Source: Halalkalibacterium halodurans (GTDB lineage Bacteria; Bacillota; Bacilli; Bacillales; Bacillaceae_D). From it: a DNA stretch of 32,000 nt. Positions within the stretch are counted from its first letter, which is position 1; every line of letters starts with the position of its first letter. Positions 5,063 through 32,000 of this stretch are shown in pieces. The notes under the pieces are model-generated. The model was not told the DNA's origin. It ran no database searches and saw only the letters and a list, made by a program, of their open reading frames with translations. The translations under genes and the position numbers were made by a program. The stretch spans positions 49,941-81,940 of the forward strand of contig NZ_SNUY01000011.1 in assembly GCF_004376175.1 (NCBI RefSeq). The letters run 5' to 3'.

Positions 5063-5988
5063 ATAAAGTGCAGGATCTGGTAGCGAATCTAAATGACTTG
5101 ATCAGGAAAGAGCTAGCTTTTGATTCTAAACTGTCTGAAGTACTTGCTGACTTCCCAGGCAAAGAAAAAGTAGAGACATTCATTGAGGAGTATGAGGCCG
5201 TTATTGCTTTTTTGCTTTTAAGGATGAGGAATCACTTTATCGATGCCTTGCACTCGTTTATTGCAAAGGATGATAGCGAAACATTAGAAGCCATCTTATC
5301 CTACTTTCAGGAGCATGTTTCCTATGAAATGTTTGTCGAAGAGCTAGCTGCTGAATCGGAGCGTTTTTTACGCATGTCAGTTGAAGAGTTTTCAAAGGTG
5401 ATCATGGATTCTCTTGATCCAGAAGTACCGTTTCAAGTGTTATCTAATCGGTCCATTAAGTGGATCGAGGAATGGTCCCAAGAACTGGCCGAACTGATGA
5501 ATCTATCAACCCAAAATTCAGTAGAGAAGATTCTCACCACGGCCATAAATGAGGGAAAGGGAATAGACTACGTGGAACGCGAACTCATGGAACATGAGTC
5601 TTTCAGTCGTCAGCGAGCAAGGACCACAGCTATAACCGAAGTTCTCACAGCGTCGTCAGTAGCGCAGCAAGAAAGCTATTCGCAAAGTCCAGCTGTCATC
5701 GGGAAACGGTGGAAGCATTCGGGAACCAAAGGAATTGACCCAAGGGAAAACCATATGGCACTTGATGGAACGGTGGTCCCTGTTGACGAGCCGTTTGTGA
5801 TCCCAGGCAGCGAGGAGGTCGCCATGTTCCCTCGCGATCCTAACCTATCTGCAAAAGAACGCGTCAATTGCCACTGTGCGCTTGGTCCAGCAGTCGACGA
5901 AAGTATCACTGGGCTGTCTCCCGAAGAAAAACAGGCGATTCGGGACGAGGCTTTAGCTGAAATGAACAGTAAGGGTGCATGGGAGTAA
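5059..5988 (+). CDS. Minor head morphogenesis protein, SPP1 gp7 / Mu F family
   Basis: C-terminal pattern RENHMALDGTVVPVDEPF...VNCHCA is typical of Mu F-like head proteins. Position follows the portal. Confidence 0.85.
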   Translation: MNKVQDLVANLNDLIRKELAFDSKLSEVLADFPGKEKVETFIEEYEAVIAFLLLRMRNHFIDALHSFIAKDDSETLEAILSYFQEHVSYEMFVEELAAESERFLRMSVEEFSKVIMDSLDPEVPFQVLSNRSIKWIEEWSQELAELMNLSTQNSVEKILTTAINEGKGIDYVERELMEHESFSRQRARTTAITEVLTASSVAQQESYSQSPAVIGKRWKHSGTKGIDPRENHMALDGTVVPVDEPFVIPGSEEVAMFPRDPNLSAKERVNCHCALGPAVDESITGLSPEEKQAIRDEALAEMNSKGAWE

Positions 5989-6009: not shown

Positions 6010-7125
6010 ATGCCAAGAGAATTAATAAACGCACAGATAACACATGTATCACTTGTTGACAAAGGAGCCAACGGGAAGAAGTTTGCCATCGTTAAGTCTG
6101 AAAAAGACCCTGTCTTTCAGAAGACAGTCAACATCATGAAATCTGATGAGGAAAAGCAGCTTGTTACCGGTGTTGTGTACGAGCCAGAGGTAGAGGATGC
6201 TCACGGAGATTTCATGACAGCTGATGAGATTGAAAAGGCTGCCCATCAGTTTTTAAAAGATTATCGGAACATCGATAAGCAGCACGACTTTATTTCTGAC
6301 GTAGGCGAAGTGGTTGAGTCCTGGATTGCAAAATCGGATATGACACTAGGTGATGAAGAGATCACCGAAGGTACTTGGGTGATGACGGTGAAAGTCACTG
6401 ATAACGACAGTTGGGAAGCGATCAAGAAGGGTGACATAACAGGTTTCAGCATGGCAGGGTCAGCGGAAGTCATCGAAAAGCAAAAGGAAAAAAAGCCTGT
6501 TTCCAAAAACCAAGAAGGCGAAGAGGAAATGAAAGGCTTTTTTACTTTGCTTAAAAACTTCTTTACAAAGGGAGAAGTCCGAGACAATTACGAGGCTAAC
6601 CAACAACGGCGCAACTTATGGGCAGTTTGGGATGCGCTGGAAGATGCTTTTTATTCTTCTATTTGGCACAACCCTACACCTCAAGTTGCTGATTTTGAGC
6701 GTATTAAAGCTGCGGCAATTGAGTTTGAGGAAATTGTGTCAGAAATCCAATCACCTGAGGCCGTTGAGAAAGCAATGGCATCAAAGCCTGAAAACATGAA
6801 AAAGTCAAAGGAGGATAACGAAGTGAAACCAGAGGAACTTCAACAAGCGCTTGAAAAAGCAATGGACCCATTGAACAAAAAACTGGAAGCCCTTGAAAAA
6901 GGACAAGATGCCAACATTGACCAAACGGGTGAGCAAGAGCTATCGGATGAGGAAAAGTTAGCTAAACAATTGGAGGATGTAGTTGCAGCTGCAGTTGATC
7001 CAATTGCAAAGCGCTTGGAAGCTATTGAAAAAACTCGTGCTGGATCTCAGCAGCAGTCTACAGATGATCAACAATCGCAAGCTCAACCTGTCGAAAAAAG
7101 CTATATGCAACATTTTTATCGGTAA
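6010..7125 (+). CDS. XkdF-type prohead protease-like / scaffolding protein
   Basis: Start moved to ATG 6010 because the track start at 5992 contains the AAAGGAGGTGA RBS. The N-terminus (ITHVSLVDKGANGKKF ... FSMAG) resembles the XkdF family. The acidic coiled-coil C-terminus is scaffold-like. Confidence 0.8.
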   Translation: MPRELINAQITHVSLVDKGANGKKFAIVKSEKDPVFQKTVNIMKSDEEKQLVTGVVYEPEVEDAHGDFMTADEIEKAAHQFLKDYRNIDKQHDFISDVGEVVESWIAKSDMTLGDEEITEGTWVMTVKVTDNDSWEAIKKGDITGFSMAGSAEVIEKQKEKKPVSKNQEGEEEMKGFFTLLKNFFTKGEVRDNYEANQQRRNLWAVWDALEDAFYSSIWHNPTPQVADFERIKAAAIEFEEIVSEIQSPEAVEKAMASKPENMKKSKEDNEVKPEELQQALEKAMDPLNKKLEALEKGQDANIDQTGEQELSDEEKLAKQLEDVVAAAVDPIAKRLEAIEKTRAGSQQQSTDDQQSQAQPVEKSYMQHFYR

Positions 7126-7168
7126 TTCAATAACCGAAGAAGAAGAAGAAGAAAAGGAGTGAATCAAA

Positions 7169-8116
7169 TTGGATAACAACGACGTAATTGCAATGGAAAA
7201 GGGCAACTCGATTCAGCAAATCAAAAAAGATATCGAAGTCACGATGCCGAAACAACAAGCGCAACAATTTTTGATCGATACGATCGAAACAACATCAACA
7301 CTACAAAAGCTAGATCCGATTTATCGTAATGACAGCAAAGGTTCCATTGACACACTTAGTGTTCAAAGTCGCCGCTTAAGAAAACATTCAAAGAACCACA
7401 CTCCAAATAACACAACTGACGGTATCGATAATGGTCAGATTGAGTATAACGTTCAAAAAGTATTTTGGGATACATGGCTTAATGATGATGATGTGTGGTA
7501 TAACTTACGAGTCCGTGGTGAGAACATCGAGGATACTGTCATTGGAATGATCCAGAGACAATTTGGTGTGGATTTGCAGGACTTAATTTTTAACGGGGAT
7601 ACAGAGATTGACCCTACAGCAGAAGATGCTGCTTTCTTAAGTATTCTTGACGGCTTCGTTAAAAAGATGAAGAAATCTCCATATGTTACAGACTTGGGAG
7701 ATGAGGAACCGACGCTGCTTGACTTTATAAATCACGTGCAGATCCTCCCAGAGCGATATAAAAATGCTCATGATGATATCACTTGGTTTATGACTCGGAA
7801 TACTCATGACAAACTAATGTCTCAAGCTACGCAACGTATGACAGGCTTCGGAGATGCTGTTTTACAAGACGGTAAATTAGTAAGAATTGCTGGATATCAA
7901 ATTGAAATTGTTGCAACTCTACAATCTGGATTTGCAGCTTTAACACCGATGAAAAACCTCAAGCCTGTTTTCACTCGTGACTTGAGATACAATCGCACGG
8001 GTGTCGGTGCAACTGCTGTCGCAAAAGATGCAACGTACCACATCTTGTTTGCGTATTTGGATGCTGTGCTGCGTGAAGTAGATGCAGTAGCTTACCTAAC
8101 AGGGTCTAAGCTATAA
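7169..8116 (+). CDS. Major capsid protein (XkdG position)
   Basis: TTG start 6 nt after AAAAGGAGTGA. 315 aa. The call rests on position after the scaffold and on size. Confidence 0.75.
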   Translation: MDNNDVIAMEKGNSIQQIKKDIEVTMPKQQAQQFLIDTIETTSTLQKLDPIYRNDSKGSIDTLSVQSRRLRKHSKNHTPNNTTDGIDNGQIEYNVQKVFWDTWLNDDDVWYNLRVRGENIEDTVIGMIQRQFGVDLQDLIFNGDTEIDPTAEDAAFLSILDGFVKKMKKSPYVTDLGDEEPTLLDFINHVQILPERYKNAHDDITWFMTRNTHDKLMSQATQRMTGFGDAVLQDGKLVRIAGYQIEIVATLQSGFAALTPMKNLKPVFTRDLRYNRTGVGATAVAKDATYHILFAYLDAVLREVDAVAYLTGSKL

Positions 8117-8147
8117 AACTAATAATGACAAAGGAGGGTAACTGAAA

Positions 8148-8432
8148 ATGCCGTATCAATTGAAGAGTAAAAGCGTCCTTCATGTGCCTGGAGGACGCTT
8201 TTTTAAGAAGGATGAAGTATACAAGGACGTGCCAAAAACGCATATGAGCTACTTTGTGGAGTCGGAAAAAGGAGGACCACAAGAGCGAACTCCATACACA
8301 CATAGTGAGTTGGAGAAATTGTCTGCTTCCGATCAGAAAAAAATTATTGAAGAACTTGGTGGAGACGCAGAAAGTGTGAAGAATGCTGAGCAGCGCATCG
8401 CCTTGATTTTAGAATTACAAGACGGTGAGTAA
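8148..8432 (+). CDS. Small head-associated protein with a HeH/Rho-N-like C-terminal motif
   Basis: GGAGGG RBS. The C-terminal LEKLSASDQKKIIEELGGD...AEQRIALILELQ resembles a HeH/SAP-type helix pair. Confidence 0.5.
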   Translation: MPYQLKSKSVLHVPGGRFFKKDEVYKDVPKTHMSYFVESEKGGPQERTPYTHSELEKLSASDQKKIIEELGGDAESVKNAEQRIALILELQDGE

Positions 8433-25276: not shown

Positions 25277-25504
25277 ATGATGTTTGATACAGGAAGCATT
25301 GCGCGTTTTTTCGGTTTGATTGCTGCACTATTGGCGTATTTCGGGGTAAATGTGCCAGAGGATTTAACAGAGGCGGTTACTAGTTTTGTTGTTGCCGCTC
25401 TAGCAGTTTACGCTGCATGGAAAAACAACTATATCAGCAAAAAAGGGCATGAACAAAAGAAAGTTTTAGAGGAAGCTGGTCTAAAGAAAGGGGAGATCGA
25501 GTAA
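25277..25504 (+). CDS. Holin (XhlB / SPP1 holin family)
   Basis: Two TM segments. The motif AAWKNNYISKKG matches the XhlB-type W-x-K-N-N-Y-x-T/S-x-K-G signature. Confidence 0.85.
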   Translation: MMFDTGSIARFFGLIAALLAYFGVNVPEDLTEAVTSFVVAALAVYAAWKNNYISKKGHEQKKVLEEAGLKKGEIE

Positions 25505-26670
25505 TGGGATATAGATTCGAGAAACTTTCACAGTTATCCGATCAACGGAACCGATTAAGAAAAAAGGGGAATTATTCAAAACGTACACAGCCTATCACTG
25601 TTCGTGCTTGGCATCATTCTTTGACTAAAAAACATTCTGCAGGTTCGACCGCTGCCGGATTTGCAAATTATCATGTGGGGTCTTTAGGATGGCCTGGTAT
25701 TGGCTATACGTTTGTGATCGAACCACAAAATATAGTAAATACACCAAACGGTAAGCGGGCAAGAATTGTATATTGCCATGACATTGATCGTCGTACTTAT
25801 CATGTTGGTAACAGCAACTCATTTGCATTAGGTATTTGTGTTGCAGGCGACTATCGAACTGAACAGCTAGATCAACCGACCTTAGCGTCAATTGCAGATT
25901 TACACTCGGCGTTAGTAGCCGACAAGATCGGAAGTAGTGACAAATCACACCACGAATTTCCGGGATACGCTTGGAAACAGTGTTGCACATTTGATTATAA
26001 AAAGGCATTTAAGGCACAGTCGCCGTCTGATCAAACCAACACAAAACCTCCAGCCACTGTACCTTCAACGTACACGATTCAAGAAGGAGATACATTCTGG
26101 AGCATCGCCCATAAAAATAGCGCAACTGGAGTAACAGTGGAAGGTTTGATTAAAGCCAACCCTGGAGTTGATCCAACTAAACTTAAAGTTGGCCAAGTCA
26201 TCAATTTTAATACAAAAGCTAGTAAGTCAAACAACGAACACAAACAATCCCAATCTGGTGCTTCTAAGGCTAAACCAAGTGGTGACCCATATGTACGTAA
26301 TATCCAACAGTTTGTAAACAGCTATGGATTCAGCATTGCGGTTGACGGGATCGCGGGACCGCAGACGATGAGAGGTCTGGTGCGAGTTTTGCAAACGGAG
26401 CTCAATAAACAATTTGGGCGCGGTCTTGTCGTTGATGGCATCTTTGGCCCACGAACACGGGCGGCATTAGTCAATGTGAGAGCAGGGGCACGCGGCAACC
26501 TCACTCGTGTATTACAGGCTTTGCTGTACATCAAGGGCTATGATGTTGGCCCATTTGACGGCATCTTTGGCGGAAAAACAGAGACGGCTGTAAGATCGTT
26601 TCAGCGCGCAAACAGGTTGACCGTGGATGGGATTGTCGGCCCTCAAACTTGGGCGGCATTACTTAGTTGA
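25504..26670 (+). CDS. Endolysin: N-acetylmuramoyl-L-alanine amidase (Amidase_2/PGRP) + LysM + PG-binding repeats
   Basis: Amidase core: GWPGIGYTFVIEP...YHVGNSN...GICVAGDY. LysM: YTIQEGDTFWSIA...VGQVINF. PG_binding_1-like repeats: VDGIAGPQT, VDGIFGPRT, VDGIVGPQTWAAL. Confidence 0.95.
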   Translation: MGYRFEKLSQLSDQRNRLRKKGNYSKRTQPITVRAWHHSLTKKHSAGSTAAGFANYHVGSLGWPGIGYTFVIEPQNIVNTPNGKRARIVYCHDIDRRTYHVGNSNSFALGICVAGDYRTEQLDQPTLASIADLHSALVADKIGSSDKSHHEFPGYAWKQCCTFDYKKAFKAQSPSDQTNTKPPATVPSTYTIQEGDTFWSIAHKNSATGVTVEGLIKANPGVDPTKLKVGQVINFNTKASKSNNEHKQSQSGASKAKPSGDPYVRNIQQFVNSYGFSIAVDGIAGPQTMRGLVRVLQTELNKQFGRGLVVDGIFGPRTRAALVNVRAGARGNLTRVLQALLYIKGYDVGPFDGIFGGKTETAVRSFQRANRLTVDGIVGPQTWAALLS

Positions 26671-26674
26671 AAAA

Positions 26675-26697
26675 AGCCCTCACGTTTTGCGGGGGCT
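26675..26697 (-). terminator. Hairpin whose T-tract lies on the minus strand, abutting the endolysin stop
   Basis: 26675-26681 pairs with 26691-26697 (AGCCCTC / GGGGGCT, one G-U pair). On the minus strand it is followed by TTTTT; on the plus strand only CTCTTGAC follows. Confidence 0.5.
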
Positions 26698-26796
26698 CTT
26701 GACTCACTGTAAATCATATGCTATCTTTTAAACAAGGTCGCGCCCGATACGGACGCGTGGATTGAAATAGTAACTATATAATAGGTTATCACGAAG

Positions 26797-26826
26797 CCCC
26801 TGCTCATTGAGCGGGGGTTTTGTCTG
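26797..26826 (+). terminator. Strong plus-strand intrinsic terminator (probable end of the lysis transcript and/or of a short RNA)
   Basis: CCCCTGCTC 26797-26805 pairs with GAGCGGGGG 26809-26817 (3-nt loop, one G-U pair), followed by TTTTGTCTGCTTCTTT. Confidence 0.8.
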
Positions 26827-26850
26827 CTTCTTTGAATATCTAATTTAATA

Positions 26851-26871
26851 GGGAGGGGCTTTGCCCCTCCC
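26851..26871. terminator. Perfect 9-bp GC hairpin just beyond the stop of the 69-aa gene
   Basis: GGGAGGGGC-TTT-GCCCCTCCC. The flanking U-tracts are weak on both strands. Confidence 0.5.
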
Positions 26872-26874
26872 GAT

Positions 26875-27084
26875 TTAAGCGTTGGTAGTGTTAAGGTAAT
26901 GATACTCAAATCCGTATTCTGTTTCCTTTTCTTCGTACCAGTGAGCATAGCGTAATCCTTGCTCGTTTTCCGCTTCTACCTTTTCTTGCATGTCGATCCC
27001 TGCTTCAATTGCGAGGTCGCTAGATATTACCTCACCAGGGCATCCTACATTGTCACTGTAAACTACATAAATCTTTTCCATCAT
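26875..27084 (-). CDS. Small acidic protein of unknown function (69 aa)
   Basis: GGAG RBS and its own operator-bearing promoter. The sequence is rich in E/D/Y (MMEKIYVVYSDNVGCPGEV...EKETEYGFEYHYL). Confidence 0.65.
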   Translation of the reverse strand: MMEKIYVVYSDNVGCPGEVISSDLAIEAGIDMQEKVEAENEQGLRYAHWYEEKETEYGFEYHYLNTTNA

Positions 27085-27149
27085 TTTTTCTCCATCCCTT
27101 CACCTCATCCGGTATCTCCGGCTTGTTGGATTATTTTATGTCTTCCCTT

Positions 27150-27190
27150 GCTGTTATTTATAATATATCATAGAAATAACAGCATGTAAA
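27150..27190 (-). promoter_or_regulatory. Sigma-A-type promoter with an overlapping 10-bp palindromic operator
   Basis: Minus strand: TTTACA (27190-27185), N17, TGaTATATT (-10 at 27167-27162). The inverted repeat GCTGTTATTT 27150-27159 / AAATAACAGC 27174-27183 spans the -10 and the start site. Confidence 0.6.
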
Positions 27191-27204
27191 TAGTTATATG
27201 AAAA

Positions 27205-27429
27205 TTAATTTTGTTTTTTAAAAGTTTTTTTGTTACGTGCGTATTCTTCAAGGTCTGCACGTAAGTACAGCCTTGTTTTGCGCACCGCTCCAAACTCCAC
27301 AAAAGGCTCAATCTTTCCTGTAGCCACCGACTGATTAAAGCCGTGTACAGATTGACCCGTGATGTCTTTTGCTTCGTCCTGCATGACCAAGTTTTCTTTT
27401 ATCCATTTCCTTACTTCTTCTTTATTCAT
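27205..27429 (-). CDS. Xis/MerR-like helix-turn-helix protein (74 aa)
   Basis: Start at the ATG at 27429, 6 nt after AAGGAGG; the track's 122-aa version overlaps the upstream gene. It forms an ATGAATAA overlap with the 213-aa gene. Motif: V-M-x-x-EA...GKIEPF...RLYLRADLEEY. Confidence 0.75.
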   Translation of the reverse strand: MNKEEVRKWIKENLVMQDEAKDITGQSVHGFNQSVATGKIEPFVEFGAVRKTRLYLRADLEEYARNKKTFKKQN

Positions 27430-28063
27430 TGTTGTCCTCCTTATCATTTTTTCTATTCCCGTGTTTCGGCATCTTTTCGGCAAGTATATCAAGGTCATCT
27501 TGCCAATAAAGTTTGATGCTTGCCCTTTCGCCCCCAACGATTTTGAATGGATATATTTCATATAACTCTGCATATTTGACGAATGTGAGTTTTGAGCATT
27601 TTAAGTATTCGAGCGCTTCGGTTTGAGAGTAGATTTTTTTCATTGCTTCTTCTCTCAACCTTATCTTTCGGGCACGCTCTTTTACTTCGTTCCACTTCAT
27701 TTGTGTGTTCGCGAGTATCGAGGTGTGGGATGGTCTTCGGTTTGACGATGCCCAACCGTTATACTCTTGAACTGAAAAATTGCTATGGCCGAAATGCTCA
27801 ATTGCTTCCACTAATGCCTGGATATAATCTGTTCTTTTATACCTTGGTACTGGCTTCCCCCTCCGTGCAACATTGTGAGGTAGTGGAGAGTCTGTCTTGG
27901 GAAACAAGTCCGACCAATGGGCGTTAAGATAGGTAATAAGCGTTGGAGACCGTGGTAAACCGTTTTCCTTTGCCCAAACATCATAATCATTTTTGGATAT
28001 ATATCCATGTTCTTTTTTTGCGCGCTCATATGCATTGATAATATCCTGCATGCTATACGACAT
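27422..28063 (-). CDS. DNA-binding protein: two homing-endonuclease-associated-like repeats plus a C-terminal Xis-like HTH, with no nuclease domain
   Basis: There is an internal duplication: QDIINAYERAKKEHGYISKNDYDVWAKENGLPRSPTLITYLNAHWSDLF versus TDYIQALVEAIEHFGHSNFSVQEYNGWASSNRRPSHTSILANTQMKWNEVK. The C-terminus (TEALEYLKCSKLTFVKYAELYEIYPF...KLYWQDDLD) is paralogous to the 74- and 80-aa HTH proteins. Confidence 0.7.
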   Translation of the reverse strand: MSYSMQDIINAYERAKKEHGYISKNDYDVWAKENGLPRSPTLITYLNAHWSDLFPKTDSPLPHNVARRGKPVPRYKRTDYIQALVEAIEHFGHSNFSVQEYNGWASSNRRPSHTSILANTQMKWNEVKERARKIRLREEAMKKIYSQTEALEYLKCSKLTFVKYAELYEIYPFKIVGGERASIKLYWQDDLDILAEKMPKHGNRKNDKEDNNE

Positions 28064-28090
28064 ATATTTACCTCTCCCCTCCGTTTTCTT

Positions 28091-28129
28091 TGTTATATAA
28101 ATAATAACATATGATTTTATATATGTAAA
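28091..28129 (-). promoter_or_regulatory. Sigma-A-type promoter with an overlapping inverted repeat sharing TGTTAT/ATAACA half-sites
   Basis: Minus strand: TTTACA (28129-28124), N17, TGtTATTAT (-10 at 28106-28101). The inverted repeat is TGTTAT 28091-28096 / ATAACA 28104-28109. Confidence 0.6.
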
Positions 28130-28197
28130 GAGTTTTCTAAAACTTTTTTCAAGGAATATTCAAAAGAGGGGAGAACCTTTATTTTAGAGGTGATCAC

Positions 28198-28395
28198 ATG
28201 GAGGTAAAGAACAAACTCAAATCAATGCGCCACGCACACGAGATGGATCAAAAGCAATTTGCCGAAAAACTCGGATTGCGGCAAGAACAATATAACCGCT
28301 ACGAGCGGCAGGCAAGGCAGCCGACTCTGAAAATAGCACTAGAGATAAGCGCTAAACTCAATATGACAGTCAACGATTTATTTTATTTAGAATAG
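28198..28395 (+). CDS. XRE/Cro-C1-family HTH transcriptional regulator (65 aa)
   Basis: The classical HTH_3 pattern MDQKQFAEKLGLRQEQYNRYERQARQPTLKIALEISAKLNMTVNDLF, with a GAGGTGA RBS. Confidence 0.9.
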   Translation: MEVKNKLKSMRHAHEMDQKQFAEKLGLRQEQYNRYERQARQPTLKIALEISAKLNMTVNDLFYLE

Positions 28396-28455
28396 GACAG
28401 GCAATATTTATACCAAACTGGCATACACTGTATCATCAAAAGGAGGATGATACAC

Positions 28456-28704
28456 ATGCAAGTAATAATGCCGTTTCATCGACGATTGGCTGAACTGGCC
28501 CACATTCAAAAATCGAGGGAACTGACAGAACAGGAATATGATGATTTTGATTTGTGCATCAAAGCTAATATGTACTATGTACAAAAGCTAACAGGTTTGT
28601 ATGAGTTGAGTTACTTGGCAAGCGTGACACAAGATGTAGAATGGCAACATGAGATTTGTAGTAAGATCGATGAGGTTGTTGTAGGTAAGCGAAAAAAGAA
28701 GTAA
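28456..28704 (+). CDS. Hypothetical helical protein (82 aa) downstream of the XRE gene
   Basis: Start moved to ATG 28456, 9 nt after AAGGAGG. The basic C-terminus overlaps the terminator stem. Confidence 0.6.
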   Translation: MQVIMPFHRRLAELAHIQKSRELTEQEYDDFDLCIKANMYYVQKLTGLYELSYLASVTQDVEWQHEICSKIDEVVVGKRKKK

Positions 28705-28720
28705 AAAACTTCTTTTATCT
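28695..28720. terminator. Bidirectional AT-rich terminator
   Basis: AAAGAAGT 28695-28702 pairs with ACTTCTTT 28708-28715. T-rich sequence follows on the plus strand, and TTTTTTCG follows on the minus strand. Confidence 0.6.
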
Positions 28721-28721
28721 A

Positions 28722-28750
28722 TTTACATTTGTCATGAGATTTGATATAAT
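28722..28750 (+). promoter_or_regulatory. Near-consensus extended -10 sigma-A promoter for the small peptide operon
   Basis: TTTACA 28722-28727, N17, TGaTATAAT (TATAAT at 28745-28750). Confidence 0.7.
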
Positions 28751-28774
28751 TAAAGTAGAAAGGGGGGAGATAAA

Positions 28775-28912
28775 GTGGATTGGGAAAAGTTAGTCCTTCT
28801 TTTAGCTTCCATATCAGGCATCTTTGCTGGTGTCACCACAGGAATGAAGAACATCCAAGAAATGAAAGCTAAAAGAAAGCGACGTCCTCGGTCAAGGAAA
28901 CGTCGCAAGTAA
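28775..28912 (+). CDS. 45-aa membrane peptide with a poly-K/R tail (type I toxin-like; not in the ORF track)
   Basis: GTG 28775, 4 nt after GGGGGGAGA. The translation is MDWEKLVLLLASISGIFAGVTTGMKNIQEMKAKRKRRPRSRKRRK. 12 of the last 15 residues are K/R. Confidence 0.6.
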   Translation: MDWEKLVLLLASISGIFAGVTTGMKNIQEMKAKRKRRPRSRKRRK

Positions 28913-28919
28913 TACCTAG

Positions 28920-28937
28920 GGGGAGGGAAACCTCCCC
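28920..28937. other. 7-bp GC hairpin with a GAAA tetraloop, without a U-tract
   Basis: GGGGAGG-GAAA-CCTCCCC. It would sit at the 3' end of the peptide mRNA and at the extreme 5' end of the predicted antisense RNA. Confidence 0.6.
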
Positions 28938-28970
28938 ACATAAAAATTATACCACAATCCACTTAAAAAT

Positions 28971-29126
28971 ATGAGAGGCCAACTGATTTTGAACGGGTCT
29001 TTGGTTGTTTTATGTCTAGTGGTAATGGATTGGAACTTTGGATCGTGGCTAGACTATGCTCTATTAGGAGTAGCTATAGTTCTTTCTTCCATTACACTCT
29101 GGAACTTATTAATGAAGGGTGACTGA
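28971..29126 (+). CDS. Possible second small membrane protein (45-51 aa; start uncertain)
   Basis: The frame is open from ATG 28971 (no RBS) or from TTG 28989 (AGAGG 10 nt upstream). It ends 2 nt before the TTG start of the 80-aa HTH gene. It is hydrophobic: ...LVVLCLVVMDWNFGSWLDYALLGVAIVLSSITLWNLLMKGD. Confidence 0.3.
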   Translation: MRGQLILNGSLVVLCLVVMDWNFGSWLDYALLGVAIVLSSITLWNLLMKGD

Positions 29127-29128
29127 CG

Positions 29129-29371
29129 TTGTACAAATTCGATTCGAAAGAGGAGCTTTTGGAGTTTATTAGCCGTGAAGTCCTAATGACTAGTGAAGCT
29201 AGCGAGTTTTTGGATGTTTCGCGGCAGCGTATGAGCGAACTAATACGCGCAAAGAAAATTACACCAATCAAAAAATCGCGTGGTTCCAGTTTATTTCTGC
29301 GTGAGGATCTTGAGCAAAAGAAAAAAGAGCTTGAGCAGCTCCGCAAAAAATACCGCCCTTATGATGAGTAG
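29129..29371 (+). CDS. Xis/MerR-like helix-turn-helix protein (80 aa), paralogue of the 74-aa protein
   Basis: TTG start 6 nt after GAAGGGTGA. It aligns with the 74-aa protein along its whole length (EELLEFISREVLMTSEASEFL...KKITPI...LFLREDLEQ). Confidence 0.75.
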   Translation: MYKFDSKEELLEFISREVLMTSEASEFLDVSRQRMSELIRAKKITPIKKSRGSSLFLREDLEQKKKELEQLRKKYRPYDE

Positions 29372-29386
29372 GGGCGGTATTTTATT
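29347..29386. terminator. Bidirectional terminator between convergent genes
   Basis: ATACCGCCC 29350-29358 pairs with GGGCGGTAT 29372-29380. An A-run precedes it and TTTTATTG follows. Confidence 0.8.
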
Positions 29387-29393
29387 GATCACC

Positions 29394-30161
29394 CTATTGT
29401 ACAAAGTGAGGATATACCATTTGTCCATCTACTACATCTAATAAATTAGCATAATTAAAATTATCCCAATTGATTTTATCCATTGTTTCACGGGACATCC
29501 ATGTTTCCATCACTGCTTCCTCCTCGATGTTCCCGTATTGGTCTTGCATAGGAAAAGTAATTGATATCCATACTTCGTCTATACGTTTATCGCTTGATAG
29601 CTGACGATAGGCTATGGTGGAATCTTCGTAAAAACCCCTGCCAATTGATTCGTCAGACCAGCCGTCTTTTCCTTTAACTGTTGCCATCAGCGAATTGTCA
29701 CTTTCATCAAATTCTATACTTACGATCGTTTCATCGATCGGATCATCCCCAGATTTGAAAATGTCATATAGAATGTCCTTTGAATCCTCTAGTACTGTCC
29801 CTTTCTTCTTTTCTGATTTTTGTTTTTTAGAATCTTTATTAGATTCTTTATCAGATTCTTTTTTGTTTGGGGCAGGCTCTTCTTCGTCAGCAGCTTCAGC
29901 TTCCTCATCTTCTTCTGTGGTTTCTAGCGCTATTACCTCAGTATCATTTTCCTCTTGTTGTACCACGTCGTCGCTATTTACTAAGTATGTGATGAATCCA
30001 ATTAAACCGATAATAAAAGCAGAAGCACCGCTTAGCAGAACGATTCTGTGTTTTTTTCCTCGTTTTTCTCTATCCCTGAACAAATTAACTATAAAGAGTA
30101 CGATTCCTACTAATACAGTAATCAGTCCAACAACAGAAAGTAGGAAAGATATAACTCCCAA
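29394..30161 (-). CDS. Two-TM membrane protein with an acidic/lysine-rich linker and a C-terminal globular domain of unknown function
   Basis: TTG start 9 nt after AAGGGGG. The TM segments are VISFLLSVVGLITVLVGIVLFIV and IVLLSGASAFIIGLIGFITYLV. A candidate promoter is TTGAAA (30224-30219), N17, TATATT (30201-30196). Confidence 0.8.
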   Translation of the reverse strand: MGVISFLLSVVGLITVLVGIVLFIVNLFRDREKRGKKHRIVLLSGASAFIIGLIGFITYLVNSDDVVQQEENDTEVIALETTEEDEEAEAADEEEPAPNKKESDKESNKDSKKQKSEKKKGTVLEDSKDILYDIFKSGDDPIDETIVSIEFDESDNSLMATVKGKDGWSDESIGRGFYEDSTIAYRQLSSDKRIDEVWISITFPMQDQYGNIEEEAVMETWMSRETMDKINWDNFNYANLLDVVDGQMVYPHFVQ

Positions 30162-30252
30162 TATGGTTAACCCCCTTTAGAGTATTTATATGGTAAATAT
30201 ACGTTTTGATGGCCTTATTTTCAATCATTAAATCAAAAGGACCGAGTAAGGT

Positions 30253-30600
30253 TTATATTTTACTAGCGCTTTTTAAGCAGTCAATCTTTACATAATAAAT
30301 ATCGTCATCACCAAAAACTACTTTTATTTGTTTAAGTTGCTGATCTATTTTAGAGATGTGGCCAACGACAGTTTGATAAAACCCTTCATGCCAATATGTG
30401 ATACTTAAGGGGTATTGTTGATCTATTGAATCCATTATGAGGTAACCAATTTCTTGTAATTCTTGTTCGTCGAGTGTAGGTTTTGAAACTTTTTTTGATT
30501 CAAATTTATATTGTTGCAGAGCGGATATATGCTCAGGCAGCATAAAGCGAGACGACTCCCATCTTAAATTTGTTCCTGGTGTTAGCTTATTTTGTTTCAT
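30253..30600 (-). CDS. YolD-like protein
   Basis: 115 aa. The N-terminal pattern R-W-E-S-S-R-F-M-L-P-E-H and the overall size match the YolD-like family of Bacillus. GGGAGG RBS. A LexA box lies in its promoter. Confidence 0.8.
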   Translation of the reverse strand: MKQNKLTPGTNLRWESSRFMLPEHISALQQYKFESKKVSKPTLDEQELQEIGYLIMDSIDQQYPLSITYWHEGFYQTVVGHISKIDQQLKQIKVVFGDDDIYYVKIDCLKSASKI

Positions 30601-30640: not shown

Positions 30641-30768
30641 CTATTATGCATAAGTGGGGTTTTTGTTTCAACACATATTTATAGAAGGGGATCAATTAAC
30701 GGGAAGGCGCACTTGGATATATGTGATGTGCTATACTTTTAGTATAATTTACTAATGGAGGTGTATTT

Positions 30769-31893
30769 ATGTCTTTTAAAAACTTAGTATCAGGTAAAAA
30801 ATTGCCTGTTATATTTATTGGCTCCGGCCTAAGTAGAAGATATTTAGATAGTCCTGATTGGGATAACTTATTAATAAAAACATTGCAGTTTATAGGTAAA
30901 AACGAGCGGGATTTTAAAAGGCTAAAATCGCGAATAAAGAATAAGCCTGAGAATAGAAATTTAATTAATGGTGAAATAAATGCAAAAGTCGCGGCAGAGA
31001 TTGAAAATGAATTTAATGAATTCTTTTATGAAAGTGATTTAATTGAAAAGTATCCGGATTGGCTAGACGAAGGAGTTAATCCTTTCAGAAAATGTATTGC
31101 TACAATTCTACAAGGGTTAAATGTTATGAAAGAAAAAGAAGAAGAGGTTTCTTTATTTAAAGCTTTAAAAAACAAGACAATAGCAGCTATTACTACTAAT
31201 TATGATACCTTATTAGAGCAGTTGTTTAACTTACCTAAAGAAAGTATCTTCATTGGACAACCTCAATTATTTAATCCTAATTCTCTTGATCTAGGTGAAC
31301 TTTACAAGATTCATGGATGTGTTACAGACCCAAATAACATAGTTATTACAGAGCATGATTATAAAAACTTCAAGAATAATGCAAAACTATTTACTGCGAA
31401 GCTCTTAACTTTAATTAGCGAAAATCCTGTGATTTTTATAGGCTACTCAATTGATGATCCCAATATGCAACAGATCTTAAGTGATTTAGTAAGTTGTTTA
31501 TCATCCGAACAAATCAAAAGTCTAATTAATCATTTTTATTTTGTAGAGTATAATGAAGGGGAAGAGAATCTAATAGAAAAAGAGTACCTTTTTGAAGCGA
31601 AATCTTACGATGGTAAACTCTCAGTTTTTCCTATATCAATTATTAGTACTGATAATTACGCAGAAGTATATAAAGAGCTAGCTAAATTAACACCAACTAT
31701 GAATATCAATACAGTAAAACAAGTAAAAAGAATTGTTAAAGATATTGTGTTAGAGTCTACAGAAGCTCAAAGTGGTAACGAAGAGGTGTTGACTATTCTC
31801 TTAGAAGATATAAACAAACTATCTGAAACTAAACAGAAGTTTGCTATTGCTATTGGTAACGTAAAAGAAATTACCTCTATAGCCCCTAAATGA
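30769..31893 (+). CDS. SIR2-like (SIR2_2 family, NADase-type defence) protein, probably 3'-truncated by an IS insertion
   Basis: Motifs: LPVIFIGSGLSRRY (glycine-rich NAD loop), TTNYD (Asn144), KIHGC (His182), VIFIGYSIDDPN. GGAGGTG RBS. The stop TGA 31891-31893 coincides with the terminal TG.. of the IS. Confidence 0.85.
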   Translation: MSFKNLVSGKKLPVIFIGSGLSRRYLDSPDWDNLLIKTLQFIGKNERDFKRLKSRIKNKPENRNLINGEINAKVAAEIENEFNEFFYESDLIEKYPDWLDEGVNPFRKCIATILQGLNVMKEKEEEVSLFKALKNKTIAAITTNYDTLLEQLFNLPKESIFIGQPQLFNPNSLDLGELYKIHGCVTDPNNIVITEHDYKNFKNNAKLFTAKLLTLISENPVIFIGYSIDDPNMQQILSDLVSCLSSEQIKSLINHFYFVEYNEGEENLIEKEYLFEAKSYDGKLSVFPISIISTDNYAEVYKELAKLTPTMNINTVKQVKRIVKDIVLESTEAQSGNEEVLTILLEDINKLSETKQKFAIAIGNVKEITSIAPK

Positions 31894-32000
31894 ACTTGGA
31901 CAGTAAGAGTAATAAATATTATACTACTTATTGTACCAAGGAGGCTGACATCATGAAACGAACAAGACACTCAAAAGGTTTCAAATTACAAGTCGTAAAA
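31891..32000 (+). mobile_element. Left end of an IS3-family insertion sequence (runs off the window)
   Basis: It begins TGAACTTGGACAGTAAG (IS3-family ends start with TG). OrfA starts 62 nt inside, which is typical spacing for the family. Confidence 0.7.
31953..32000 (+). CDS. IS3-family transposase OrfA, N-terminal fragment
   Basis: AAGGAGG RBS. MKRTRHSKGFKLQVVK matches the conserved FKLQVV start of IS3/IS150-group OrfA HTH proteins. Confidence 0.75.
   Translation, partial: MKRTRHSKGFKLQVVK

Follow-up and report, generated by a model that had tools for sequence, protein, structure and literature searches.

A truncated PDC-S25-type SIR2 gene, interrupted by an IS3-family element and probably carried as defence cargo by a PBSX-like prophage of Halalkalibacterium halodurans

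A SIR2 domain serves as the NADase effector in several phage defence systems. In Thoeris the effector ThsA is a SIR2-SLOG NADase (PDB 6lhx, 8bto, 7uxt). DSR1 and DSR2 are single proteins of about 1000-1250 aa in which one polypeptide joins a SIR2 NADase at the N-terminus to a helical C-terminal region, and in DSR2 this region binds a phage tail-tube protein, as the titles of the PDB entries state. The same effector domain is common to SIR2-HerA, SPARSA (SIR2-pAgo), the LmuA-SIR2 form of Lamassu, KomC of Kongming and Avs5. SIR2-HerA, SPARSA, Lamassu and Kongming need HerA, pAgo, LmuB/C and KomA/B respectively, and Avs5 has a fused STAND NTPase. A functional analogue from outside the SIR2 group is SpbK of ICEBs1, a single-gene NAD+-degrading cargo defence that acts against SPbeta by abortive infection, but its catalytic fold is TIR rather than SIR2 and it has no sequence similarity to the proteins considered here. 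Finally, PADLOC lists PDC systems, described as unpublished phage defence candidates. One of these, PDC-S25, appears in the searchable literature only in lists, where we found neither an experimental report nor a named or validated equivalent.

Here we compare with these systems a SIR2 gene close to the right-hand edge of a 32,000-nucleotide stretch of H. halodurans DNA, called the window below. The features to which the analysis refers are as follows.

1024-26670, plus strand: morphogenesis and lysis module of a PBSX/skin-type contractile-tail prophage, ending in an endolysin
25504-26670, plus strand: Amidase_2/LysM/PG-binding endolysin, the last gene of the lysis module
26671-30252, no strand assigned: prophage accessory arm, from the endolysin to the YolD/SIR2 pair, defined by Pfam and PHROG matches
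30253-30600, minus strand: YolD-like gene, divergent to the SIR2 gene (Pfam YolD E 3e-26; phrog_3352)
30757-30761, plus strand: ribosome-binding site GGAGG, 7 nt before the ATG of the SIR2 ORF, read directly from the sequence
30769-31893, plus strand: SIR2 ORF, ATG start, 374 aa
30769-31881, plus strand: native SIR2 coding part, codons 1 to 370/371, with the complete SIR2_2 domain and most of the interdomain linker
30820-30828, plus strand: codons of G18-S19-G20 in the glycine-rich NAD-binding-type loop, conserved in 68 family members
31192-31206, plus strand: TTNYD motif (residues 142-146); its Asn144, putatively catalytic, is encoded at 31198-31200
31306-31317, plus strand: KIHG motif (residues 180-183); its His182, putatively catalytic, is encoded at 31312-31314
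31881-32000, plus strand: left end of an IS3-family element that runs off the window, assigned by identity to an annotated IS3 region
31882-31893, plus strand: junction codons Ala372-Pro373-Lys374 and a TGA stop, supplied by the end of the IS

The SIR2 ORF corresponds to E2L07_05870, a protein product listed in the annotation of the source genome, and a first-pass annotation made from the sequence had recognized in it a SIR2_2-type gene with its motifs in the proper order. A profile search bears this out: residues 140-273 match Pfam SIR2_2 (PF13289) with 93.5 bits (E 1.6e-26) against a gathering cutoff of 24.5, which by score is well beyond chance, and all motifs lie where they had been placed. 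The glycine-rich loop, VIFIGSGLS, takes up residues 14-22. TTNYD aligns with the TTNYD of ThsA (chain 6lhx, residues 110-114) and KIHG with the 'yKmHGdv' of the same protein, while IFIGYSIDDPN spans residues 222-232. Across the 68 relatives the invariant positions are F16, G18 and G20 in the loop, with S19 kept in at least 90%, and further along T142, T143, N144, Y145, D146, K180, H182, G183, G225, Y226 and D230. Mutants described as inactive are present in the PDB for the position corresponding to His182, where the molecule names give H171A for DSR2 and H146N for KomC. The conservation of these motifs and the homology to ThsA, DSR2 and KomC suggest that the intact relatives of the ORF would act as NAD+ glycohydrolases. 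Scans of the SIR2 region for sigma-70 promoters and for terminators gave sites no more frequent than in shuffled sequence, and because the sigma-70 sites do not exceed this background we claim no promoter upstream of the ORF.

The first-pass annotation had left the system type undetermined and possibly new. However, a PADLOC scan assigns it: the best matches of the ORF are the two PDC-S25 profiles, PDLC04968 (E 4.2e-91) and PDLC04967 (E 5.6e-72), and the next best are ThsA, Dsr1 and LmuA. Residues 6-370 cover positions 18-360 of the 517 in PDLC04968; a full-length relative from Peribacillus, P0003, covers positions 18-515 of 517 with E 2.3e-110. The ORF therefore falls short of full-length PDC-S25 coverage, for which both domains and a profile of about 517-528 positions are required, and by these matches it is a truncated member of a family that PADLOC has already catalogued. 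Relatives are encoded in 397 or more species-representative genomes and on 129 IMG/VR viral contigs.

Beyond PDC-S25 itself, the nearest relatives are defence-associated sirtuins (ThsA, DSR1/2, LmuA-SIR2), a placement that both sequence and structure support. Sequence matches in the PDB over residues 140-316 are to defence NADases only: ThsA (7uxt, 6lhx and 8bto, with profile E values of 5e-17 to 5e-13), DSR2 and the KomC chains (E 8e-10). Foldseek likewise returns DSR2, ThsA and KomC at E 1e-9 to 1e-7, with DSR2 chains as the top matches and a probability of 1.0 for ThsA.

How much of the gene is missing can be read from the intact relatives. These are 526-545 aa long. The ORF is 60-67% identical to relatives of ~530 aa, in frame and free of stops, up to '...GNVKEITSI'; homology then ends at residue 370/371, where the relatives go on with YGY.... 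The AF2 model of P0003 (mean pLDDT 83) consists of a SIR2 domain from residue 1 to ~330, a linker at 330-380 modelled with low confidence, and a helical domain at 380-530 with pLDDT ~90. This fits the earlier estimate of ~320 aa of SIR2 fold followed by a tail of ~50 aa. The ~50 residues are indeed present, but they are linker, and the whole domain of ~150 aa that should follow is missing.

The lost domain has no structural counterpart that we could find. Modelled in isolation it is all-helical with pLDDT >95, no Pfam model was found for it, and fold searches gave no match in the PDB (best E 1.2) or in BFVD (best E 1.1); the noise in these searches consisted of 14-3-3 and FAT helical bundles at E >1. 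A profile of the domain collects 357 clusters at 50% identity, and in every listed near-full-length match (about 490-555 aa) it sits at roughly 330-545, while the shorter matches look like fragments. Among 73 sampled matches 72 carry SIR2_2 and no other Pfam domain, and in the phage proteins BC1912 and Javan227_0002 both domains align (hhalign probability 100%). Conserved polar residues of the domain (E384/D385, K418/Y419, R518 and D524 in P0003 numbering) would fit an autoinhibitory interface and a pocket for a small ligand equally well. The sensor role given to the domain is a conjecture from the example of DSR2, ThsA and SpbK.

The cause of the truncation is visible at the edge of the window. 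Positions 31881-31994 are 88.6% identical over 114 nt to the start of a region annotated 'IS3 family transposase' on plasmid pNe-1, an identity that takes in the untranslated leader and the first codons of the transposase orfA, whose ATG lies at 31953 (MKRTRHSKGFKLQVVK...). Judged by this identity the disrupting sequence is a real IS3-family element, which agrees with the earlier proposal that an IS cuts the gene, since IS identity starts at 31881 and family homology stops at 370/371. The window contains 120 nt of the element, and no clear right end was seen in the pNe-1 copy. Aligned with its relatives, the ORF is missing the last ~160 residues, and with them the whole C-terminal domain of ~150 aa, removed by the insertion. 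A 3' fragment of the gene may still lie downstream of the IS.

We regard the truncated allele as probably a dead remnant that was recently inactivated, with the loss of function deduced from the lost domain. The 370 retained codons, in which neither a stop nor a frameshift has accumulated despite a GC content of 30%, point either to a recent insertion or to a stump that is under selection. In a different reading the 374-aa protein still works, as a stand-alone SIR2 NADase freed of its regulatory domain or complemented by a C-terminal fragment expressed beyond the IS. The intact SIR2 domain with its catalytic-type residues, the strong ribosome-binding site, the AT-rich but undamaged codons and the annotated product would all fit. 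However, the C-terminal domain is kept at a fixed position in every member seen, fragment-length matches aside, and this argues that it is required; moreover, an unregulated NADase would be toxic and one that cannot be activated would be useless. A search of recorded proteins with the profile of the C-terminal 160 aa found no fragment from H. halodurans, with two fragments from other Bacillaceae, and broken copies of the family at other loci (L046, L038, L055, L073, L082) fit recurrent decay. A functional stump thus seems to us quite improbable, and the fitting annotation for the locus is that of a pseudogene, a PDC-S25-type SIR2 gene on a PBSX-like prophage that an IS has interrupted.

Several of the named systems would require a second gene, and the first-pass annotation had expected partner genes to come to light once the ORF was rebuilt. 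We collected the neighbours within three genes of the relatives at 80 genome loci, none of them from H. halodurans, clustered them by BLAST and scanned the recurrent clusters against Pfam. The 437 neighbours fall into 364 clusters, of which the commonest, a large serine recombinase, occurs at 10 of the 80 loci; among the other recurrent clusters, those given an identity are type I R-M subunits, ImmA, HATPase_c_4 and DUF559. No partner gene is conserved across these loci, and in the window a PADLOC scan of the neighbours of the SIR2 ORF matched nothing except a generic XRE regulator. PDC-S25 is a stand-alone single-gene system without an obligatory partner. Because no partner recurs in the 80 loci, rebuilding the locus is unlikely to reveal any.

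The same data bear on the relation to Thoeris. ThsA is the top match among the named systems, both in PADLOC (ThsA1) and among PDB chains, and it has the SIR2_2 core, TTNYD and K-x-HG in common with the ORF, so one could suppose a ThsA-type effector triggered by a cyclic-ADPR signal from a ThsB that is encoded elsewhere or was lost beyond the IS. However, the ThsA models and structures cover the SIR2 part only (PADLOC ThsA1 E 2.8e-27, profile positions 85-283 of 478; PDB matches over residues 140-316). Where ThsA has an alpha/beta ligand-binding domain of the SLOG or Macro type, PDC-S25 has an all-helical C-terminus that matches nothing in the PDB, which includes ThsA. The earlier remark that the visible tail does not resemble SLOG was thus sound. 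In addition, no gene for the TIR protein ThsB was matched by PADLOC among the neighbours in the window, and none recurs in the 80 loci. We consider a Thoeris effector extremely unlikely.

The other named systems can be set apart by the same combination of architecture and neighbours, on which we reject membership of DSR, SIR2-HerA, SPARSA, Lamassu and Avs5 as well as of ThsA. DSR1 and DSR2 have the same plan, but the PDC-S25 family is half as long (~530 aa), its C-terminal domain of 150 aa has no detectable fold similarity to the C-terminal repeats of DSR2, and the NCBIfam equivalogs score only 25.9 bits (Dsr2) and 18.4 bits (Dsr1) on the ORF for cutoffs of 1400. PADLOC LmuA matches the ORF at E 9e-15 and the generic SIR2 models match weakly. 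HerA, short pAgo, LmuB/LmuC and KomA/KomB are not among the recurrent neighbour clusters identified at the 80 loci. A STAND NTPase or sensor repeats of the Avs5 type are likewise absent, SIR2_2 being the only Pfam domain found in 73 members of ~530 aa.

Where the relatives sit in other genomes is informative about the origin of the gene. In phBC6A51, in prophages of the B. cereus group and in a Peribacillus prophage they follow holin and amidase; in Streptococcus phage Javan227 and in R. gnavus elements they lie between integrase and repressor/ImmA; and at 6-8 loci they adjoin or lie inside type I R-M operons (EcoEI_R_C, HsdS, HsdM). In an ICEBs1-like element of B. atrophaeus the relative is directly upstream of a rap-phr pair, the slot equivalent to that of spbK, which in ICEBs1 is found at rap-phr. 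Among the 40 IMG/VR contigs of at least 20 kb, 22 have the gene within 4 kb of one of their ends.

In the window, the morphogenesis module includes genes for small terminase, portal, XkdF protease, sheath, tube (DUF2001), a YqbQ-like protein, Baseplate_J and tail fibre. The accessory arm beyond the endolysin encodes an XRE regulator, DUF7667, an HTH_17 excisionase-like protein, a membrane protein and ORFs of unknown function, with matches to phrog_13817, phrog_4691 (excisionase) and phrog_8263. A DNA search with 24-32 kb of the window against sequenced phages gave a single match of 120 nt, which means that none of these phages is close. Within the window nothing usable as a mark of the prophage borders was found, be it an att repeat, a tRNA or an integrase.

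Composition changes along the same path. GC content falls from 44.2% in the structural and lysis genes to 38.3% in the accessory arm, 33% in the YolD-like gene and 30.0% in the SIR2 ORF (GC3 22.7%), which is the lowest-GC 1125-nt stretch of the window (window mean 43.1%, sd 3.8). The hand counts behind the earlier claim of low GC are thereby confirmed, and the low GC argues for a foreign cassette. That annotation had further placed the gene next to the prophage as a separate acquisition; the foreign cassette stands, but a mere neighbour does not agree with relatives that occupy post-lysis slots of prophages. Because relatives occupy cargo slots of mobile elements, the SIR2 gene is best read as cargo of the PBSX-like prophage. 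Alternatively, YolD, SIR2 and IS could form a chromosomal islet that was acquired separately and merely abuts the prophage, as the stepwise fall in GC would allow, as would the ill-defined ends of PBSX-type elements, the att site not found in the window, and a YolD-SIR2 pair in Salibacterium that lies outside any obvious prophage. However, in three further Bacillaceae prophages close relatives likewise follow the lysis genes, and genes between the endolysin and SIR2 match phage protein families. In the B. cereus prophages the gene immediately upstream of SIR2 is a 70-aa HTH_17 gene, 41% identical to window positions 29129-29371. Low GC is also usual for defence cargo within prophages. A separate islet is therefore doubtful, though it deserves some weight.

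The contexts also bear on whether the family is a defence system at all. SIR2-fold enzymes have several chemistries, the cargo slots of prophages and ICEs hold non-defence morons too, and the anti-phage role of PDC-S25 still has candidate status, so that the family might instead be a non-defence accessory enzyme of mobile elements, for example a protein deacylase or ADP-ribosyltransferase that acts on the physiology of the host or the element, or an addiction module. Against this, the nearest relatives in sequence and in structure are all NAD+-depleting defence effectors and not deacetylase sirtuins, the type I R-M neighbours and the spbK-equivalent slot are typical contexts of defence genes, and the PADLOC curators chose the family as a defence candidate. 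We consider a non-defence function unlikely.

Taken together, the reading that we favour, and hold to be probable, is that the ORF keeps the 5' 70% of a gene whose product, one protein with two domains, is a self-contained defence candidate, and that this gene is carried as mobile-element cargo and was inactivated by an IS. Intact members of ~530 aa would hydrolyse NAD+ with the SIR2_2 domain, through the GSG loop, Asn144 and His182, and the all-helical C-terminal domain (~150 aa) would restrain the enzyme until a component of the phage is sensed. Depletion of NAD+ would then abort the infection and shield the lysogen population from superinfecting phages. On this model the genes would travel on prophages, ICEs and R-M islands, and the present copy would be a low-GC imported cassette at the far end of a PBSX-like prophage, hit by an IS3-family insertion at codon 371. 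A broader version, which we put forward tentatively, is that PDC-S25 is a widespread self-contained SIR2 immune receptor whose C-terminal domain is a new helical sensor fold that binds a phage protein directly, so that prophages and ICEs from Bacillota to Pseudomonadota and the archaea could exclude competitors; the present insertion and the other broken copies might then reflect recurrent selection to disarm the system, for example if it fires when the resident prophage is induced.

As one more disrupted copy of a PADLOC-listed family, the locus in the window has little weight of its own. More is to be gained from the family: it is a compact SIR2 system, one protein of ~530 aa in classic cargo slots, and if validated it would be among the smallest self-contained SIR2 sensor-effectors and a tractable model for the gating of an NADase by a small helical domain. 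For the question of gating, the truncated allele could serve as a natural 'sensor-less' construct.

The YolD-like gene was considered as a partner of SIR2 and rejected: among about 175 loci the two are adjacent in only 1 other, in Salibacterium halotolerans, where the pair is again divergent. In H. halodurans the YolD-like gene is possibly part of the cassette with which SIR2 was imported.

The ORF at 30769-31893 (+) opens with an ATG, carries GGAGG 7 nt 5' of it, and encodes the 374-aa product that the first-pass annotation had called a SIR2-like NADase-type defence protein. All of the motifs on which that call was based are present at the residues given for them:

Motifs of the SIR2 protein of the window
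Residues 14-22, VIFIGSGLS
Residues 142-146, TTNYD
Residues 180-183, KIHG
Residues 222-232, IFIGYSIDDPN

The key positions, with the catalytic-type residues among them, are conserved, G18, G20, T142-D146, K180, H182, G183, G225, Y226 and D230 being invariant across 68 relatives, and the expected Pfam SIR2_2 domain is detected at residues 140-273 (E 1.6e-26). The system type had been left open, but PADLOC-DB assigns the protein to the single-gene candidate PDC-S25 (E 4.2e-91), well ahead of ThsA (2.8e-27), Dsr1 (5e-18) and LmuA (9e-15). Membership of DSR1/DSR2 was rejected, the NCBIfam Dsr1 and Dsr2 equivalogs giving 18-26 bits for cutoffs of 1400. With the window protein as query, 1363 proteins reach E <= 0.001. 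One identical protein is on record (H. halodurans E2L07_05870, annotated hypothetical or 'SIR2 family'), and the next relatives, 60-67% identical, come from the Bacillus cereus group, Peribacillus, Priestia, Paenibacillus, Lentibacillus and B. atrophaeus; at 529-535 aa, they do not end naturally near residue 374. We regard it as almost certain that the gene is a truncated PDC-S25 member. The family is already catalogued in PADLOC as a candidate, and the window contributes a disrupted copy of it; in the searchable literature PDC-S25 is present in inventories only, with PDC systems described as unpublished candidates, and it is absent from a validation study that covered eight other systems of this kind.

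The window protein aligns to its relatives without gaps or stops as far as '...GNVKEITSI' (residue 370/371), beyond which they go on with 'YGY...' for 155-165 further residues. The match of the window protein to the 517-position PDC-S25 profile ends at position 360, compared with 18-515 for P0003, a full-length Peribacillus relative. From 31881 the window DNA shares 88.6% identity, leader and first codons included, with the beginning of a pNe-1 plasmid region annotated as an IS3-family transposase, and the orfA ATG is at 31953; the codons Ala372-Pro373-Lys374 and the TGA stop are therefore supplied by the end of the IS. A profile search for the lost C-terminus returned no fragment from H. halodurans. 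Having lost its entire C-terminal domain, the allele is probably inactive, and the insertion looks recent, given the 370 intact codons. In the plasmid collection the IS end (31881-32000) matches best at 2501-2614 of the pNe-1 locus (Aeromonas sp. Ne-1, 88.6%), on a plasmid assigned to a gammaproteobacterium, an odd source for an IS carried by an alkaliphilic member of the Bacillaceae; a right inverted repeat is not clearly seen 3' of the transposase gene in the pNe-1 copy.

What was lost is seen when P0003 is modelled with AlphaFold2 on an alignment of 68 sequences (mean pLDDT 83.4):

Domains of P0003
To about residue 330, alpha/beta SIR2 domain
Residues 330-380, linker, low confidence
Residues 380-530, all-helical domain, pLDDT about 90

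Modelled from the natural C-terminal fragment P0121, the helical domain (C-domain) reaches pLDDT above 95. It has no Pfam model, and Foldseek searches with it give no match (best E 1.2 for PDB, 1.1 for BFVD). DSR2, ThsA and KomC, the solved structures matched by the whole P0003 model, are matched through the SIR2 domain only. Searched against 1.84 billion representatives, the C-domain profile matches 357 clusters at E <= 0.001. Every near-full-length match listed (about 490-555 aa) carries the domain at roughly residues 330-545, while shorter matches resemble fragments. SIR2_2 occurs in 72 of 73 sampled matches and any other Pfam domain in none, so that the architecture is both fixed and exclusive. 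Because the C-domain is unmatched, the family would stand apart among SIR2 effectors. Tentatively, PDC-S25 may be a self-contained SIR2 immune receptor with the C-domain as a new sensor fold.

Neighbours were surveyed at 80 loci of species-representative genomes, taken from at least 397 matching and spanning Bacillota, Bacteroidota, Pseudomonadota and archaeal MAGs. The 437 proteins within three genes fell into 364 clusters, and the recurrent ones were named by Pfam:

Recurrent neighbours among 80 loci
10 loci, large serine recombinase
6-8 loci, type I restriction-modification pieces EcoEI_R_C, HsdS and HsdM
4 loci, ImmA (Peptidase_M78)
4 loci, HATPase_c_4
3 loci, DUF559

Another four-locus cluster is not a separate gene but the N-terminal fragment of frameshifted SIR2 gene copies. 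A PADLOC scan of the neighbours in the window returned nothing except a generic XRE regulator. The gene is a single-gene system without partners, and the Thoeris, SIR2-HerA, SPARSA, Lamassu and Kongming architectures do not describe the family.

Type I restriction-modification genes (HsdM, HsdS, EcoEI_R_C fragment) adjoin the member at loci L029, L051, L052, L054, L056, L070 and L091. In Salipaludibacillus sp. HK11 (L046, 8001-9076) the member is split into a 185-aa piece and a separate 114-aa C-terminal fragment (P0122), and at L038, L055, L073 and L082 the N-terminal part is a separate ORF just upstream. Pseudogenisation thus appears recurrent, at about 5 of the 80 loci.

The SIR2 gene lies beyond the lysis genes of a PBSX/skin-type prophage with a contractile tail:

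Features of the window
1024-26670, prophage: small terminase, portal, XkdF protease, sheath, DUF2001 tube, YqbQ-like protein, Baseplate_J; also a 1540-aa tape-measure ORF, a LysM protein and a 755-aa tail fibre
To 26670, endolysin (Amidase_2-LysM-PG_binding)
Between endolysin and SIR2 gene, XRE regulator
Between endolysin and SIR2 gene, DUF7667 protein (phrog_13817)
29129-29371, HTH_17 excisionase-like protein, 80 aa (phrog_4691)
Between endolysin and SIR2 gene, membrane protein (phrog_8263)
30253-30600 (-), YolD-like protein (phrog_3352), GC 33%

Each of the last five belongs to a family known in phages. None of 50,697 phage records is closely related to the prophage at the DNA level, a stretch of 120 nt being the sole match. 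Just 3' of the endolysin, 27205-28063 (-) holds two overlapping ORFs of 122 and 213 aa; neither has a PADLOC match, and the latter also lacks a Pfam or PHROG match.

As first noted from small samples, the SIR2 ORF is poor in G+C (30.0%, GC3 22.7%) compared with the structural and lysis genes (44.2%) and with the window mean (43.1%, sd 3.8); no 1125-nt stretch of the window is lower. The GC falls stepwise from 44% to 38%, 33% (YolD) and 30% (SIR2), which points to the YolD-SIR2 end as an imported cassette. To that extent separate acquisition holds, but composition does not place the cassette outside the prophage, and a border search of the window did not map one.

The relatives argue that 'next to the prophage' was too narrow a description. 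B. cereus-group prophages run from tail genes through holin, amidase and small genes, an HTH_17 homologue among them, to SIR2, which is followed by the chromosomal genes PadR and lexA. The SIR2 gene of a Peribacillus prophage is directly 3' of holin and amidase, and in Bacillus prophage phBC6A51 the member BC1912 is just beyond the lysis genes. In Streptococcus phage Javan227 and R. gnavus elements it is flanked by integrase and repressor or ImmA. BC1912 and Javan227_0002 align over both domains (hhalign probability 100%). IMG/VR has 129 viral contigs that encode relatives, and 22 of 40 with a length of 20 kb or more have the gene <4 kb from one end, against an estimated random-position expectation of roughly a quarter. 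In B. atrophaeus (L008-L010, 8001-9593) the member is directly upstream of rap-phr in an ICEBs1-like element with TcpE, AAA_10, cell-wall hydrolase and DUF4467 genes, the last, upstream, presumably matching yddJ of ICEBs1. This is the slot that the TIR NADase gene spbK takes in ICEBs1, and it looks as if one NADase defence has been swapped for another in the same cargo position. From these positions, the SIR2 gene is typical prophage and ICE cargo. An FRG-domain gene comes after rap-phr in the B. atrophaeus element.

In the B. cereus-group prophages (L003-L006) a 70-aa HTH_17 excisionase-like gene (7632-7844) lies on the same strand about 150 nt upstream of the SIR2 gene, and is possibly a local regulator. 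Its product is about 40% identical to that of the window HTH_17 gene, which is 1.4 kb from the SIR2 gene with two opposite-strand genes between.

Established knowledge of ThsA, DSR2, KomC and SpbK leads us to favour, with some reserve, an NADase-defence mechanism for the family. By this analogy, the SIR2 domain of intact members would hydrolyse NAD+, and the C-domain would hold it off and sense a phage component; the activated protein would deplete NAD+ and abort the infection, to the benefit of the lysogen population. Deposited structures of ThsA, DSR2 and KomC include His-mutant inactive forms and phage-protein complexes.

The YolD-like gene is divergent from the adjoining SIR2 gene, and no Y-family polymerase gene stands beside it in the window. 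Salibacterium halotolerans (L017) has the same divergent pair (YolD 5394-5813 (-), 39% identical; SIR2 6070-7671 (+), 60% identical), with no obvious prophage around it. Among about 175 loci the pair was found nowhere else, and YolD and SIR2 are therefore probably a co-travelling cassette rather than partners. A 219-nt direct repeat without an Rfam match (1659-1877 and 8010-8228, 90% identical) flanks a 6.35-kb segment with the Salibacterium pair, and a second, 68-nt repeat is nearby; these repeats could mark a mobile or recombined segment.
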